Positions 45,593-57,834 of a DNA stretch of 64,000 nt are shown here, one piece after another (the first letter of the stretch is position 1; each line of letters begins with the position of its first letter). Where the stretch lies: the sequence record MN850564.1; one strand, 5' to 3'. The notes below the pieces were generated by a model, which made no database searches, had not been told where the DNA came from, and was given only the letters and a program-made list of their open reading frames with translations. This DNA comes from Escherichia phage humlepung. The position numbers and the translations under genes are program-made.

Positions 45593-46096
45593 TCAACTTA
45601 GTTTTGCAAACTCTCCGTGGAGTTTAATAGCAGCTTCACAGTAAGCTTTATGGGCTTCTTCTGGTGTGTCAAATAAACCAAGTGATGTCCTTTTACCTCT
45701 GCATGTTATAGCTGCCCTCCACTTATTGCAGTCTTTAAAGTAATGTACACCCTTGTAACCTGATTTGTTAGTCGTCTGCTTTACCCTATTTTGAGCATTT
45801 CCGTATTTATCAGTCTCCCTAAGATTAGAAATGTGATTATTACTTCTGTTACCATCAATGTGGTCTATCATCTTAGTGGGTTTGTAACCATGTTCGAACC
45901 ACCAAACGAGGTGATGAATTTTTATTACGACATCTTTGAATTTAAGTACTTTGTAACCGTAAGCATCAGCACCTCCTGCAATCTGCCCAGCTTTAGCTTG
46001 TCTATTCCTGTCATACTTGTTGTAGAAGACCCCTTTGTCGGGGTCGTAAATAAAATTATCCTTGTAGTCTTGAAGTGTTAGTGTACGGCGTACCAT
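45593..46096 (-). CDS. HNH homing endonuclease with AP2-type DNA-binding domain
   Basis: HNH core HHLVWWFEHGY...IDHIDGNRSNNHISNLR; C-terminal YKGV...LGLFDTPEEAHKAY AP2-like segment. Confidence 0.75.
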   Translation of the reverse strand: MVRRTLTLQDYKDNFIYDPDKGVFYNKYDRNRQAKAGQIAGGADAYGYKVLKFKDVVIKIHHLVWWFEHGYKPTKMIDHIDGNRSNNHISNLRETDKYGNAQNRVKQTTNKSGYKGVHYFKDCNKWRAAITCRGKRTSLGLFDTPEEAHKAYCEAAIKLHGEFAKLS

Positions 46097-48777
46097 GTCT
46101 TACCTACCTTACCAGTGCCTGTAACAAGCGTCTTACTCTTTAATCCAAGATTTTTTGATGCTTGACCATACATTCTATCAATAATCTCCTTAACATCAGG
46201 TACATCTTTGGTTGGAACCTCTAAAGAGACCTCATCGTGGTAACTACAGACCCACCTAGCACCAATAGCTGGCTTCCTACCATTTAGAACTGTAAGCTTG
46301 CGCTCTGTTAACTCCCTGTTAGCCAAGTTAATACCCTCATTCTGCACCTGCGCCTCACTGCCCATAAGTGTGTAATTCAATAACTTATGTGGAGATTTAC
46401 ACCATAACCACGCCCCAGCAACCTTGATATAGCCACCTTTTGCAATTGCAGAAGTCTTTCCGAAAACCTCTTCAAGTGCTTTCTTAGTTGCTTTGAAGTC
46501 TTCCTCTAGTCTATCAAGCAGCTTTTTAATCTTAGGTAGACGCACAAAGTAAGTTTGTTTAGTCAATGCACCCTCTTCCGTAGATGATGCCTTGATAGTT
46601 TTTGCAAACTTCTCGTCTCCGGCTCCAAATAACAGGGCGTAGATGCCATTTTTGCTCTTCTTACGACCTTTTGTAATCTCGTGGAGAAGTTCCTCATCCT
46701 GTGTCTCCCTGCAACGAACAATATCCTCTTCTTTGTTAAGACCAAAGTAAATACTGTTCAGTGTATGCGCATCAGTCCCTGTGTAGACTTCATAGAGGTC
46801 ATTTTCAGCATCATAACGCAGATACTTGTCAGTTTCTGGGTTAAGATACTTGTCAAGATGTTTACAGTAGTATCTACCATCATCTTGCTTAGTGAACTCT
46901 ACTGACTCTTTACCCTCAGTTACCGCTTTAGTGAAGTCTTCATCACCCATAAAGTTACAAAGAAGAACTAGCTGGGCTGAGTTTTGGTCTACGGAGATGA
47001 TATCTGTACCATCTTCACAAGTCCACACCTCCCTCATAGGTGCTCCATAGACAGCAGCACCAGACGGTACGTTTACAATACCATATTGTGTCATACGTCC
47101 AGTTGAAGTGCCAAACACCATTGCACCAGCACTAAGGCGACCATCAGGACGAATCTGGTTCAACCAACCTTTTTCATCATCCTTTGAGTTCTCAATAGTT
47201 CTGCGTCGGTGCATCAAAGTATAGTACTTAGCAATCTTCTGTCCAAGCTCACCTTCAATCGTATCATAAGATGATTCAGTAAGTTTTGGTGAAGTACGGA
47301 TTAAGCAAGGTTCAAGCAAATCTGTGTATTTCTTCACAGACCAGTTATGCTCGATGTACTGTACACCTTCATGTTCAACATAACTCAAACCACACCGCTC
47401 AACCATTTCCTGCCACTTAGGATGCTTTGTAATCATCTTTTTATTGTCTTTGAAACGACAAACTTTGATAGGGCGACCATCTGAGTCTTTCTTGTAATTC
47501 CAGTCATCTGGAATCCAACCAACTGATTTCAAGTAGTCTTTAACAACTGCTACCTGAGTCATACGAGAAACTTCAAACTCAATTGGTGTATATGGTGCAT
47601 CAATCAAACCTGTGTAGCGACTTGACTCAAGTTCAAAGTGATTGACAACGTGACTGTTATAGTACTTCACAGTCTTGACTGTTTTTACTGGTTTCCAGTC
47701 TTTGCATTTTTTGCCAATCTTTGCATTCAACTCGTTGCAGATTGCACGAGCATCCTTCATCGCTACAAAACCCTCTTTGTACTCTTCACCAGTTACAGAG
47801 TTGGTTGGTGTATAGCAATTTCTCTTTTCAATGTTAAAAATCTTTGTAGTTGGCTTACCAAATGGTTTGATTTCATAAGTCTGCATCTCACCATTACGTA
47901 CCTGCTGACGATACTTTGTCTTAGGGTACTTGGTAATTCTCTTCAGTCCATCTGCATGACCAAATGTTTCAACATACTCATTCCAAGCTTTTGCAAACTC
48001 TTCTCCAGTGACTTTACCTTTGGTCTTAATAGTTGGAGGAAGATGTGGTTCAACCTCTGAAGCAAGTTCATTAGTCAATTTGTCAAGCTCCTTTACATGG
48101 AACTCCATAAGCTCCTTATCAGCTTTCCAACCATTGATAGCTTGCTGGCTCATCCAGAAAGATGTCTCTTTAGCTCGCATGTAAGTCTCATAAGTGTCTA
48201 TACCACACTTCTTAAGCTTGAGATACTCGTTATCAAGTGCCCGTTTAGTTTTGGCATTAATACGGATATCTTCTACAACACGAGTGAAGATTTCTGCATT
48301 CCACACACCCCAATGTTCAATCTCTGGTTTACGGACACCAACACGAGCACCCCATGCAGCCAAACCATGAGCACCTTTATAACCCTTTGGGGTTGGCCTA
48401 TCCATCCACTGAACACGAGACTGGATAAGAGAGTCCTGAAAGAAATTACTCCACGGTTTACACTTTGGATTATCAAAGTTCCATAAATCAGGTGCAATGT
48501 GATTGAAAACCCACCAGTCATAACCGAGACCATTATGGATGCAAAGACGTTTTGCCTTTAACGCAAATTCAACACCTTCACGTAAACCACCTTTGATGTA
48601 CTTAGTGTACTTGTGACCGAGGATAGGCTCATCTGTAAAGACCCATACAGGTGGCTCTTCATCGTCAGATTTATAGTCTGCAAAGGCCATTACGTGAACT
48701 TTAGTGAACTCAAGGAGTAAACCATCAGTTTCTGTATCACCAACCAAATGTAAGTTTTTAAAATCTACGTTTTCCAT
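46078..48777 (-). CDS. DNA polymerase, family A, with 3'-5' exonuclease domain
   Basis: Exo motif GDTETDGL, Pol A motif C-like HDEVSLEV; start at MENVDFKN with AGGGAG RBS (track start 48807). Confidence 0.85.
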   Translation of the reverse strand: MENVDFKNLHLVGDTETDGLLLEFTKVHVMAFADYKSDDEEPPVWVFTDEPILGHKYTKYIKGGLREGVEFALKAKRLCIHNGLGYDWWVFNHIAPDLWNFDNPKCKPWSNFFQDSLIQSRVQWMDRPTPKGYKGAHGLAAWGARVGVRKPEIEHWGVWNAEIFTRVVEDIRINAKTKRALDNEYLKLKKCGIDTYETYMRAKETSFWMSQQAINGWKADKELMEFHVKELDKLTNELASEVEPHLPPTIKTKGKVTGEEFAKAWNEYVETFGHADGLKRITKYPKTKYRQQVRNGEMQTYEIKPFGKPTTKIFNIEKRNCYTPTNSVTGEEYKEGFVAMKDARAICNELNAKIGKKCKDWKPVKTVKTVKYYNSHVVNHFELESSRYTGLIDAPYTPIEFEVSRMTQVAVVKDYLKSVGWIPDDWNYKKDSDGRPIKVCRFKDNKKMITKHPKWQEMVERCGLSYVEHEGVQYIEHNWSVKKYTDLLEPCLIRTSPKLTESSYDTIEGELGQKIAKYYTLMHRRRTIENSKDDEKGWLNQIRPDGRLSAGAMVFGTSTGRMTQYGIVNVPSGAAVYGAPMREVWTCEDGTDIISVDQNSAQLVLLCNFMGDEDFTKAVTEGKESVEFTKQDDGRYYCKHLDKYLNPETDKYLRYDAENDLYEVYTGTDAHTLNSIYFGLNKEEDIVRCRETQDEELLHEITKGRKKSKNGIYALLFGAGDEKFAKTIKASSTEEGALTKQTYFVRLPKIKKLLDRLEEDFKATKKALEEVFGKTSAIAKGGYIKVAGAWLWCKSPHKLLNYTLMGSEAQVQNEGINLANRELTERKLTVLNGRKPAIGARWVCSYHDEVSLEVPTKDVPDVKEIIDRMYGQASKNLGLKSKTLVTGTGKVGKTWYAVH

Positions 48778-48837
48778 TTTTACTCCCTCTAAAATCATTA
48801 ACCTCATACATTACTGCAAAAAATTATAAAAAGCAAG

Positions 48838-53725: not shown

Positions 53726-54583
53726 ATGTCTAAAGTTGTTAAAATGAAAGCTCCGGTAGAGAAATACAATGGTACTGAACGCCAAACTCTGCGATACCTG
53801 CTGAAAGATGTCTGGTTTTATTACCTGAACACTTCACCACGTCCGGGAAAAGGTAAGTCTATTGATAAGAAATTCCCAGGCAAAGACTGTAACTACAGCG
53901 TATCAATTCTGGCAGAAGACGGTAACAAACTGTTTAAAGAGTTTACTAAGTCTAAGAAAAATCCAGAAGGCTGGGATAAAGTCACTACTGAAGCAGTTGA
54001 TGCAGATGACTTCGAAGAGAAGTTTGGTTGTAAACCACCTTTTGAAGCAGACACTTACTACATCTTGAAAGTAAGTCGTGCAGCAGCTTATAAAGATGGT
54101 GCTGTATGGACAGCTAAACAGTCATTCCCTGTGATGCTGATTGAAGAAGTAAATGGTAAGCGTGTAGCTGTTAAACAGCCGATGAAGAAAATCAAAGCTC
54201 AAGCATCTGATAAACATGAAGATGACAAGAACTATGATGTAATTCATCCAGATATTGCAGTCGGTAACGGTTCTTTTGGTAGTGTGATTCTTTCTACTCA
54301 CTTCTACACTTTTGAGAACAATGTTCTGACAAAACCTATTCAGGAACAGTTTATCATTGATACTCTTGTACCTTACACTGGTGGTAACGGTGCTAACGGT
54401 GAACCTGAACTGGATGAAGACGAACTGGCTATGCTTGGTCTTGATGGTGTCGAAGATAACGGTGAAATCACTGAAGAAGATGCAACAGACCATAAATCTT
54501 CGAATGAGTCTGATGATGGTGATGATGAAGATTTGCCAGACCCAGATGACGAAGAAGATGAAGACTTCGATACAGAAGACTAA
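53726..54583 (+). CDS. single-stranded DNA-binding protein (T7 gp2.5-like), putative
   Basis: Highly acidic C-terminal tail DDGDDEDLPDPDDEEDEDFDTED; replication-module context. Confidence 0.55.
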   Translation: MSKVVKMKAPVEKYNGTERQTLRYLLKDVWFYYLNTSPRPGKGKSIDKKFPGKDCNYSVSILAEDGNKLFKEFTKSKKNPEGWDKVTTEAVDADDFEEKFGCKPPFEADTYYILKVSRAAAYKDGAVWTAKQSFPVMLIEEVNGKRVAVKQPMKKIKAQASDKHEDDKNYDVIHPDIAVGNGSFGSVILSTHFYTFENNVLTKPIQEQFIIDTLVPYTGGNGANGEPELDEDELAMLGLDGVEDNGEITEEDATDHKSSNESDDGDDEDLPDPDDEEDEDFDTED

Positions 54584-54645: not shown

Positions 54646-55686
54646 ATGGAGAAGTACACATTAACAAAGCTTCCCGATTCAGTTACACATGTTTTTATTG
54701 ACTCTGACAGTATTGCCTATAAAGGTGCTTGTGTAGTTGAGAAAGCAAAGTATAAATATGTCAATAAACTCACAGCAGAAGAGTCTGAGCCATTTGATAA
54801 TGCGAAAGATGCTGCAAGATGGTTAGCAGACCAGAGAATCCTTGTGGAAGAGCTTGGCCTGACATTTAATGAAGATGAATGGGAAAGGCAGACTTGGAAA
54901 GAAGCTAAGAGTGAAAAAGAAGCTATCATGGCTACTCAACAGGTTCTTCAGGAATGGCTTAAGGTTGTTGGTAAAGAGAGAATTTGGGTAGGTTATCTAA
55001 CAGAGAAAGGTGTGCATAAGCATAAAGACATTAAAGGTCTTGAGCACCAATATCAAGGTAACCGTAAAGATGCTGTCACACCAACACACTTAGTTGCTTG
55101 TCGTGAGTATCTTCTGTCAAGACCAGAGTTCAAACTAATTCTTGATGGATTTGAAGCCGATTCTATCGTTATTGCTAAAGCTGAAAAGATGGGTAAAAAG
55201 GCTGCCTTGATGAGTATTGATAAAGACCTTCGTCAAGCTGAAGGGACTTACTGCATTGATATGACCTATGAAAAGTCACCTTTGATTTTCATTGCTGACA
55301 ACAACGTAGGTGAAATTTGGGATTGCCCAATAAAATCGACACCAAAAGCTAAGAAGACAGTTGGGGTAGGTTTTAAATTTCTTTGTTACCAAGCTGTGGC
55401 TGGTGATAATGCTGATAATTATTTTGGTTTAAAGGGCGTTGGTAAGGCTACTGTAATGAAAGCACTTGAAGGTAAAACCACCTACAAAGAGTGTCTTGAT
55501 GCAATTTATGAGCTTTATGCTAAGAAAGAGTCATATACTTATGTCTCGTGGGATGGCCAAACAATTACCAGAACACCTTTAGAGTTAATGCAGCAACACT
55601 TTTTCTTAGCTTATCAGGAAAGAAACAAGAAAGACGATTTCACTTTTAAGAAATATAATTGGGAGCCGTGTATGAATGAAGATTAA
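54646..55686 (+). CDS. 5'-3' exonuclease / flap endonuclease (FEN, RNase H-like)
   Basis: H3TH-like motif AGDNADNYFGLKGVGKATVMKAL. Confidence 0.7.
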   Translation: MEKYTLTKLPDSVTHVFIDSDSIAYKGACVVEKAKYKYVNKLTAEESEPFDNAKDAARWLADQRILVEELGLTFNEDEWERQTWKEAKSEKEAIMATQQVLQEWLKVVGKERIWVGYLTEKGVHKHKDIKGLEHQYQGNRKDAVTPTHLVACREYLLSRPEFKLILDGFEADSIVIAKAEKMGKKAALMSIDKDLRQAEGTYCIDMTYEKSPLIFIADNNVGEIWDCPIKSTPKAKKTVGVGFKFLCYQAVAGDNADNYFGLKGVGKATVMKALEGKTTYKECLDAIYELYAKKESYTYVSWDGQTITRTPLELMQQHFFLAYQERNKKDDFTFKKYNWEPCMNED

Positions 55687-56173
55687 AGGATTTGGCAATT
55701 GCCCTACCTATGGTCATTGGGTATCTTTATGTGGGGAAGTTGACCCCACTAAACATTTTGGTTTTGTCTATTTAGTGTACTGCAAAAAGACTGGACAGTA
55801 TTATTTGGGTAAGAAACAGTTTAATAGCGTGACCAAAAGAAAAGTTGCTGGTAAGACTCGGAAGAAGATAGTCACTAAGGAAAGTGATTGGCTGACTTAC
55901 GAGACTTCTTCTGAGTATATCAAAAAAGATATTGAGAGCTTTGGAAAAGAATCTTTTGACTTTTACATTATTCAGACCTACTACACAAAAGGTGGCCTAG
56001 TCTATGGTGAAGCAAACCTTCAACATAAATTCGATGTAATGACAAAAAGGATTGACTCGAAGCTCAGACTCTTCTACAATGCCAATATTGCAGCAATTAA
56101 GTTTATTACTAAAGAAACTTATGAAGATGCTGAAAAAAGAATCCATAAGGTAATGAAAGCAAATTGTGCTTGA
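55676..56173 (+). CDS. GIY-YIG-like endonuclease, putative
   Basis: N-terminal GFVYLVY...TGQYYLGKK resembling GIY-(10)-YIG. Confidence 0.45.
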   Translation: MKIKGFGNCPTYGHWVSLCGEVDPTKHFGFVYLVYCKKTGQYYLGKKQFNSVTKRKVAGKTRKKIVTKESDWLTYETSSEYIKKDIESFGKESFDFYIIQTYYTKGGLVYGEANLQHKFDVMTKRIDSKLRLFYNANIAAIKFITKETYEDAEKRIHKVMKANCA

Positions 56174-56194
56174 TAACTATTGAGAGAGAATAAA

Positions 56195-56443
56195 ATGTTT
56201 AACAAAAGTAAAGCTGTGAGTCATGTAGCAAAAGTTGACAGCAAGATTGAAGAACTTGAGCGCATCCTTGCAAATGCTAGAGAGTCAATAATTAAAGAAG
56301 TTGAAGCTGTTGAGTCTCAAATGCAGCACCTAATGCTTAAACGTCAAGAGCTACGTGAACATCTAGAATATATTGAAACACGAGAGCTAAAGGTTAACAA
56401 ATATTTTAAGGAGTCCGAATGTTTAACTCAAGAGAATCAGTAA
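56195..56443 (+). CDS. hypothetical coiled-coil protein (82 aa)
   Basis: ATG 56195 with GAGAGAG RBS (track start is TTG). Confidence 0.4.
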   Translation: MFNKSKAVSHVAKVDSKIEELERILANARESIIKEVEAVESQMQHLMLKRQELREHLEYIETRELKVNKYFKESECLTQENQ

Positions 56444-57174
56444 AAAACTGGAACCTTCGTTGTGGAAACACTCAAAAGCAACCTTACAGTGATGAGTATT
56501 GGGAATCTTTAAAATCTCAATCTCTGTGTATGCTTGAAGAAGCAAAAGAGCTTGTAAAAGCAATTGAAGAGAAAGACCCCATTGAGACACTGGATGCTCA
56601 GGCAGATTTGCAATATGTTCTTGACGGCTTGATTTATCTGTCACAACATGACCATAACGGTGCTATGAAAGCTGTTTGCCGTAATAATGACCTGAAGTAC
56701 ACAGATGACTATGAAGAAGCTTTAAAACGTCTTGCAGACATTGAAAAGCGTACTGGTCAAGAGTGTATTATCAGAATGTCAGTAGTTGATGGTAAAGAGT
56801 GGTATGCTATTGTTCGTGCAGCCGATGGGAAGATTATGAAGCAATCAAATCTCCCTAAAGTACAGCTTGGTGAATACATTGTAGAACTTGAAAGCCAAGA
56901 ACTTTTTGTGGTAGTATCTGAGACATGCGTTATCTGCAAAGGTATTGTAGGTAGCTTAAAGGATTTGGGTGTAGATGGTTTTGTAGAAGTTAATCCAATT
57001 ACCTCTAAAGCAGATAAAGACTTCTGTAAAGAGAACGGACTATGGATTGCAGATATTGTCTACTATGATGGTGAGCAGTTCCATGTAACCTCATACCCGA
57101 AACTGAATTATGATGCTAATAACCTGAAGTGCTGGTTAAAAGGGGTTGGTTATAATGGATTCACAGAACATTAA
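56419..57174 (+). CDS. hypothetical protein, weak resemblance to MazG-like pyrophosphohydrolase
   Basis: EEAKELVKAIEE...DLQYVLDGLIYL helix pattern; AAGGAG RBS. Confidence 0.4.
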   Translation: MFNSRESVKNWNLRCGNTQKQPYSDEYWESLKSQSLCMLEEAKELVKAIEEKDPIETLDAQADLQYVLDGLIYLSQHDHNGAMKAVCRNNDLKYTDDYEEALKRLADIEKRTGQECIIRMSVVDGKEWYAIVRAADGKIMKQSNLPKVQLGEYIVELESQELFVVVSETCVICKGIVGSLKDLGVDGFVEVNPITSKADKDFCKENGLWIADIVYYDGEQFHVTSYPKLNYDANNLKCWLKGVGYNGFTEH

Positions 57175-57806: not shown

Positions 57807-57812
57807 ACTATG

Positions 57813-57834
57813 GAGCCTCTTCGGAGGCTCTTTT
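57813..57834 (+). terminator. Terminator gagcctc-ttcg-gaggctc + TTTT
   Basis: Perfect 7-bp stem with tetraloop and T-run. Confidence 0.6.

Follow-up and report, generated by a model that had tools for sequence, protein, structure and literature searches.

A classical homing endonuclease combines a catalytic domain with a DNA-binding module. T4 SegE (205 amino acids, aa) and SegD (223 aa), of the GIY-YIG family PF19835, carry a C-terminal DNA-binding half, and the distribution of the T4 seg genes over the T-even phages is patchy. I-TevI, whose gene is intron-borne, needs a linker, a zinc finger and a helix-turn-helix (HTH) for targeting. Phage T7 employs an endonuclease that makes entry points or resolves branches, from which the gene 6 exonuclease/flap endonuclease (FEN) resects. 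T4 endonuclease II (EndoII, or DenA) is a small GIY-YIG nuclease encoded in a nucleotide-metabolism cluster; it has no separate DNA-binding domain and binds DNA by oligomerising (PMC2764454). Here we analyse a GIY-YIG nuclease gene of Escherichia phage humlepung (sequence record MN850564.1; the 64,000 nucleotides, nt, that were analysed are called the window) and find that it belongs to the core genes of Ounavirinae: it is fixed, kept in synteny, inherited vertically and subject to strong purifying selection, and it probably does not act as a mobile homing endonuclease at present. What is new is a fixed, domain-only nuclease coupled to an exonuclease gene across phage families. We favour, with a probability of about 0.6, the reading that it is a domesticated nuclease of homing-endonuclease ancestry, a partner of the exonuclease when phage DNA is replicated or recombined.

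The open reading frame (ORF) starts with ATG and stops with TGA, as given by the ORF list and the sequence, and it is arranged with its upstream partner as follows.

54646..55686, plus strand: gene of the FEN, a 5'-3' exonuclease of 346 aa and the conserved partner upstream of the nuclease (phrog_107 exonuclease, E 8e-66)
55676..56173, plus strand: gene of the domain-only SegE-type GIY-YIG nuclease, 165 aa, basic with an isoelectric point of 9.5 (ORF, Pfam, PHROGs)
55676..55686, plus strand: 11 nt in which the start of the nuclease gene overlaps the end of FEN, and the insertion point of an HNH-AP2 gene in relatives (sequence, relatives)
55661..55665, plus strand: GGGAG, Shine-Dalgarno-like, 10 nt 5' of the nuclease ATG and within the 3' end of the FEN gene (read from the sequence)

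The initial annotation had described a possible GIY-YIG endonuclease overlapping the end of the FEN gene, and the overlap is real; the nuclease is likely translationally coupled to FEN through it. The window FEN is homologous to the PF02739/PF01367 FENs found upstream of related short nucleases (E 2.4e-16, local FEN profile). The phage belongs to Felixounavirus: over 4.3 kb around the nuclease ORF it shares 99.9% identity with Shigella phage JK55, and this stretch has matches in 258 phage records. The window holds no paralog of the nuclease, as an hmmsearch of all 345 stop-to-stop ORFs retrieved this ORF alone.

The family assignment proved equally sound. Pfam returned a single match, PF19835 (SegE_GIY-YIG), at E 2.7e-27 over residues 21-138 (profile positions 10-123 of 123); the score of 95.9 bits, where the gathering threshold is 25, answers the profile search that the initial annotation had proposed as a check. 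PHROGs placed the protein in phrog_447 (E 2.6e-47), with weaker matches to homing-endonuclease families, and NCBIfam gave no significant match. Among 1.84 billion cluster representatives, a profile search retrieved 2210 relatives at E<=1e-3. The 150 best of these, 30-60% identical to the query, form our conservation alignment, and all 150 match PF19835. Likewise, hhalign of the nuclease profile with T4 SegE gave a probability of 96.7% (E 4.5e-10), and the two T4 proteins share with the window nuclease the motifs F-V-Y...Y-I-G-K and Y-x-G/S-S-G/S, a helix with a conserved Gly, the Glu, and Y-Y-N. Neither the protein nor its profile found a relevant match when PDB sequences were searched. The best PDB matches of the AlphaFold model are to the I-TevI catalytic domain (1LN0/1MK0), at 13-15% identity. 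The structural scores are modest, so the GIY-YIG assignment is carried by the sequence evidence. Together these results identify a real SegE-type GIY-YIG nuclease gene with predicted cleavage activity. The parts of the protein are listed here by the position of their codons.

55709..55726, plus strand: N-terminal Y-G-H-W-x-S, residues 12-17, a predicted extra beta-strand (alignment, model)
55760..55816, plus strand: GIY...YIG core, residues 29-47 (150-relative alignment)
55823..55882, plus strand: basic beta-hairpin insertion NSVTKRKVAGKTRKKIVTKE, residues 50-69, containing R62 (alignments, model)
55889..55912, plus strand: W72, Y75, S78 and S79 (128/150), aligning with T4 SegE Y-x-G-S-G and I-TevI H40-S-S
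56009..56011, plus strand: E112, codon GAA (150-relative alignment)
56078..56080, plus strand: N135, codon AAT, in an F-Y-N motif (F/Y-Y-N in the family) that aligns with T4 SegE YYN
56123..56164, plus strand: C-terminal helix, residues 150-163, the sole part after the catalytic domain (AlphaFold model, tail analysis)

Ten residues are invariant in 150/150 relatives: G29, Y32, Y43, G45, K47, W72, Y75, S78, E112 and N135. The core reads G29-F30-V31-Y32 and Y43-L44-G45 with 10 residues between the tyrosines, in agreement with the GIY-(10-11)-YIG pattern that the initial annotation had seen in GFVYLVY...TGQYYLGKK. E112 would correspond by motif order and spacing to the metal-binding Glu of I-TevI (E75), although no residue-level alignment with I-TevI reached this region; its location after the third strand, in the following helix, fits the AlphaFold model. 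The match of N135 to I-TevI N90 is suggested by motif order. Two parts distinguish the protein from T4 SegE and SegD. The Y-G-H-W-x-S segment, in which W15 is found in 148/150 and H14 in 122/150 relatives, is absent from both, and both are without the basic hairpin (some 20-27 residues), which is missing from I-TevI too. The hairpin, rich in lysine and arginine, is a candidate DNA-contact element.

The initial annotation had further proposed a check for the catalytic Arg and Glu, and of these the Glu is found throughout the family whereas the Arg is found only in part. R62 is invariant in 18 Ounavirinae-type sequences, but across the 150 relatives its column holds N (57), R (44), K (6) and 22 gaps, and T4 SegE and SegD lack that segment. 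A low-confidence hhalign alignment pairs R62 with I-TevI R27, which has no securely aligned counterpart in the window nuclease. The invariant K47, which occupies the His position of T4 SegE and SegD, may substitute for the canonical Arg. The unplaced Arg, together with a promoter-like site in the 3' part of the gene, would suit a catalytically dead remnant that is kept for its overlap with FEN or for regulatory signals. We regard such a remnant as very improbable, since ten residues, the Glu and the Asn included, are invariant over relatives so diverged, purifying selection acts along the whole length of the gene, and the overlap with FEN is just 11 nt.

We next consider the module that would direct the nuclease to a target. 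At E<=10, Pfam shows the catalytic domain alone, with no NUMOD and no HTH. Only 19 residues, predicted to form one helix, follow the domain here, whereas 96 of the 150 representatives have a C-terminal tail of more than 30 residues; 41 of the relatives carry NUMOD3, 6 an I-HmuI NUMOD-like domain and several HTH domains. Two places where a targeting module might hide were considered and rejected. A vestigial NUMOD3 in the C-terminal helix was hinted at by the hhalign consensus, but Pfam returned nothing for five orthologous tails, that of the window included, and no HTH was found. The downstream 87-aa ORF (orf87), as a split-off DNA-binding half, gave only weak matches of coiled-coil type, in addition to phrog_4442, a family of unknown function. 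The nuclease thus lacks the separate DNA-recognition module that marks a homing endonuclease and that T4 SegE and SegD carry in their C-terminal halves.

Mobile genes are expected to be sporadic and discordant with their surroundings, and this gene is neither. By tblastn, it is present at >=60% identity in 296 phage records and at ~51% in four Pectobacterium phages, while the neighbouring FEN is present in 301 records. Megablast covers >=80% of the nuclease query in 226/226 matching records, and no allele lacking the gene between FEN and orf87 was found among ~300 Ounavirinae records. The order of primase-helicase, single-stranded DNA-binding protein (SSB)-like gene, FEN, nuclease, small ORF, MazG-like gene and ribonucleotide reductase (RNR) is kept in Felixounavirus, Suspvirus, Mooglevirus, Kolesnikvirus and the unclassified Arno162. 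Across five lineages the identity of the nuclease follows that of FEN, primase-helicase and NrdA, with no discordance with the flanks: 63% in the Erwinia phage (FEN 54%, primase-helicase 69%, NrdA 57%), 51% in Arno162 (FEN 52%) and 87% in SUSP2 (FEN 89%). Pairwise dN/dS (nonsynonymous over synonymous divergence) at unsaturated distances is 0.04-0.09 for the nuclease and 0.06-0.13 for FEN. The gene is maintained over saturated synonymous divergence, unlike the decay expected of a selfish gene that was merely swept to fixation. In being fixed and syntenic it also differs from the T4 seg genes. Thus, the lack of a targeting module, of a sporadic distribution and of a discordant phylogeny sets the gene apart from mobile homing endonucleases, and the proposal in the initial annotation that it is a second mobile endonuclease of the replication module is not supported.

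One could still suppose an active, free-standing Seg-like homing endonuclease that was swept to fixation, recognises a site in or near FEN through its basic hairpin, and excludes competitors without the gene in mixed infection. The characterised members of the SegE family are T4 homing endonucleases, the tree shows long relatives with NUMOD3 or HTH scattered among short ones (28 state changes over 150 tips), homing endonuclease genes typically adjoin conserved replication genes, and synonymous divergence (dS) between the window and phage adrianh rises locally at the junction, to 0.30 here against 0.007 in MazG. Nevertheless we consider this account unlikely. Besides the missing module, the absence of an empty allele among ~300 genomes, and a dN/dS that does not show the expected decay, the divergence keeps pace with that of the flanks even at 51% identity. 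Furthermore, the pairing persists where the upstream gene encodes a non-homologous, Cas4-type exonuclease (see below), which makes a shared DNA target unlikely, and the raised dS is better explained by an HNH gene inserting at the junction.

That HNH gene is probably the sporadic, mobile element of this locus. In adrianh, Mijalis and others, an endonuclease gene with HNH_3 and AP2 domains lies exactly between FEN and the nuclease and overlaps both neighbours; the adrianh type occupies the junction in 43 records, and further records have another kind of HNH there. Examples in the loci of relatives are these.

L002:2956-3471: junction HNH gene of adrianh
L009:4504-5004: junction HNH gene of a relative
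L017:5523-6014: junction HNH gene of a relative

In the window the junction (55670-55690) is empty of an HNH-AP2 gene, and may represent the homing site of the element. Comparison of the window with adrianh over 55676-57174 gives a dS of 0.30 for the nuclease, 0.19 for FEN and 0.007 for the MazG-like gene ~300 bp further on; the drop is a sharp recombination boundary beside the HNH insertion site. Elsewhere in the window, a 167-aa ORF with HNH and AP2-like motifs (45593-46096, minus strand) directly follows the DNA polymerase gene (46078-48807, minus strand). It is annotated as an HNH homing endonuclease in JK55 and is 38% identical to the junction HNH of adrianh, and it is probably the 'first' mobile endonuclease that the initial annotation implied.

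The coupling of nuclease and exonuclease extends beyond Ounavirinae. We sampled IMG/VR with a degenerate DNA pattern for YIGKKQF, which biases the sample to proteins with exactly that motif, and obtained 80 loci, 74 of them with a SegE-like ORF. Upstream neighbours were 5'-3' exonucleases (PF02739/PF01367) in 24 of the 35 loci examined, and downstream neighbours were gp4-type primase-helicases in 18-20 of 32. By the local FEN profile, an adjacent FEN was found in 27 of 59 short forms on IMG/VR contigs versus 2 of 16 long forms. The order exonuclease, then nuclease, with overlapping stop and start, is also seen in Naomviridae and in ~25 uncultured viral contigs. Two members of this group are in culture, the dU-DNA roseophages DSS3_VP1 and DSS3_PM1 (Naomviridae), which encode, in this order, polymerase, 5'-3' exonuclease, the nuclease homolog, primase-helicase and RNR. 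The describers of Naomviridae noted the conserved synteny of its replication module and left the small nuclease gene unmentioned (PMC8323127). On the JGI 3300037502 contig Ga0310151_0000723 (L015:5178-6399), a 132-aa homolog, 52% identical, follows an exonuclease with a Cas4 domain (PD-(D/E)XK) with an 8-nt overlap. The replication module of this contig differs, with a family A polymerase, a short MazG and a class II RNR, and the partner exonuclease was apparently displaced by a non-orthologous one. A rough neighbour-joining tree puts the proteins of Ounavirinae together with the Naomviridae-like and Cas4-linked ones in a single contiguous group, and a few other FEN-adjacent cases lie elsewhere. 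The exonuclease association probably arose few times, yet apparently survived a swap to a non-homologous exonuclease.

In cyanomyoviruses, too, a short SegE-type nuclease looks fixed rather than mobile, which would make them a second such lineage. They carry a domain-only homolog of 146-155 aa at a conserved spot downstream of nrdA, nrdB and talC (L011:3420-3887, Syn9 gp202; L012:3441-3881), and it occurs in most Synechococcus-phage records, 327 compared with 377 that have T4-type NrdB, which serves as a rough yardstick. A search within one literature library found no paper on PF19835 or on a phage GIY-YIG/FEN gene pair.

We suggest that domestication proceeded as follows. The ancestor would have been a Seg-like homing endonuclease, whose sequence-reading module was lost or was never present, and which was kept for the benefit of the phage. 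The nuclease would be co-translated with the exonuclease and would bind DNA without reading its sequence, by means of the basic hairpin and possibly through oligomerisation or the exonuclease itself. It would then nick or cut branched DNA with little sequence specificity, and the exonuclease would resect from the entry points so made during replication, recombination, or concatemer processing and maturation. The replication module of the window is T7-like (gp4-type primase-helicase, family A polymerase, FEN), and the nuclease and FEN recall the gp3 and gp6 pair of T7, as a functional analogy only, given that the fold of T7 gp3 differs. The GenBank annotation of a 98%-identical relative contains no Holliday-junction resolvase or other core endonuclease, which is compatible with a role in replication or recombination. 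A broader proposal, to which we attach distinctly less credence and which we offer as tentative, is that the domain-only SegE-type clade was recruited from homing-endonuclease stock as a dedicated, nicking or branch-cutting partner of 5'-3' exonucleases. It would then be a core replication and recombination factor of Ounavirinae, Naomviridae and many uncultured phages with T7-like modules, doing the job of T7 endonuclease I or T4 endonuclease VII.

Several points weigh against a domesticated partner of the exonuclease. The activity and substrate of the short clade, and its working link to the exonuclease, are deduced from sequence and gene order only, and the absence of a resolvase is an absence from annotation only. 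The canonical catalytic Arg could not be confidently placed, and the pLDDT (AlphaFold confidence) is <50 at residues 125-139, the stretch that holds N135. Most exonuclease-linked cases belong to one clade, which would mean few independent origins (6 Fitch changes), and the association could in part be inherited synteny. Finally, about half of the short forms, the widespread cyanomyovirus ones included, have no adjacent exonuclease.

The gene's surroundings also bring to mind T4 EndoII. Were the nuclease EndoII-like, it would nick the host chromosome, and FEN would degrade the DNA to nucleotides for the adjacent pathway of MazG, RNR and deoxynucleoside monophosphate kinase. The two proteins share a domain-only architecture, the gene resides within a cluster for nucleotide metabolism and replication, T4 denA likewise adjoins nrdB, the cyanomyovirus homologues lie downstream of nrdA-nrdB, and the nuclease is paired with a 5'-3' exonuclease. 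This explanation is nonetheless improbable. No DNA modification that could spare the phage's own DNA is known in Felix O1-like phages, which counts against it. The shared architecture is accompanied by no detectable sequence relationship with DenA (hhalign probability 0.5%; hmmsearch E 0.03 in a 7-sequence search). Moreover, degradation of host DNA is contradicted for this clade by phages SUSP1 and SUSP2, which release intact, transformable plasmid DNA and are described as being without host-DNA-degrading endonucleases (PMC5241400); SUSP2 has the 87%-identical ortholog at the same locus.

Domesticated GIY-YIG/T5orf172 nucleases have also been documented in conflicts between phages, hosts and satellites, as with ICP1 Odn, which acts against PLE, and Bas63 gp77, proposed to act against retron Ec67 (PMC8263062, PMC10055350, PMC11482910). 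By analogy, the window nuclease could act in counter-defence or between elements, destroying the nucleic acid of a host or a satellite, an idea that we judge slightly less probable still than a role in host-DNA degradation. The documented proteins carry targeting domains, PADLOC defence models gave no match, and the replication-operon position and the coupling to exonucleases across phage families with different hosts argue for housekeeping. Bas63 gp77 is, furthermore, a different and unrelated gene. Its identity with the window nuclease was ruled out: the ortholog in Bas63 is bas63_0057, and gp77 is bas63_0077, without similarity to the nuclease. Although reported as a GIY-YIG-domain protein that counters the retron (PMC11482910), gp77 (L004:7949-8464) has no Pfam match at E<=0.01. 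An ortholog of gp77 would fall past the window end.

The remaining features of the locus concern its expression and its neighbours. The transcription unit that comprises FEN, the nuclease, orf87 and MazG likely has its 3' end at the following hairpin.

57812..57831, plus strand: terminator-like hairpin 3' of orf111 (consensus scan only; phage Mijalis has an annotated terminator at the same place)

A sigma-70-like promoter match (TTGACT, 17 nt, TACAAT; 10/12) is located at window 56052-56080 on the plus strand, inside the 3' part of the nuclease gene and 5' of orf87; the region as a whole has about as many matches of this kind as shuffled sequence does. An ORF of 285 aa (53726-54583, plus strand), with an acidic C-terminal tail, takes the SSB position between primase-helicase and FEN. 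Its sole match is phrog_3877, of unknown function, and its product is 43-100% identical across Ounavirinae.

Public records already name a product for the nuclease gene, in some cases wrongly. Relatives label it "GIY-YIG homing endonuclease", "NAD synthetase" or "hypothetical protein" in GenBank, and the protein is 100% identical to one of phage warpig that bears the first of these names. The second name is that of phrog_447 itself, and the proteins so called in RefSeq from Felixounavirus, Kolesnikvirus, Naomviridae and cyanomyoviruses are of the same family as the window nuclease. We rejected this name, as neither Pfam nor NCBIfam finds an NAD synthase domain at E<=10, and it looks like a propagated annotation error. 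Hundreds of Felix O1-like genomes are affected, in which "homing endonuclease" overstates mobility and "NAD synthetase" is wrong. Some Felix O1-like phages are used in the biocontrol and typing of Salmonella and E. coli.

As it stands, the outcome is a sound re-annotation and a testable hypothesis rather than a surprise. If the nuclease does work with FEN, a nuclease of selfish-element stock would clearly have been domesticated for the core DNA metabolism of a phage. It would then fill an apparent gap in Felix O1-like phages, for which no debranching or nicking endonuclease is annotated, and would also bear on how SUSP-type "superspreader" phages spare plasmid DNA despite encoding a nuclease.

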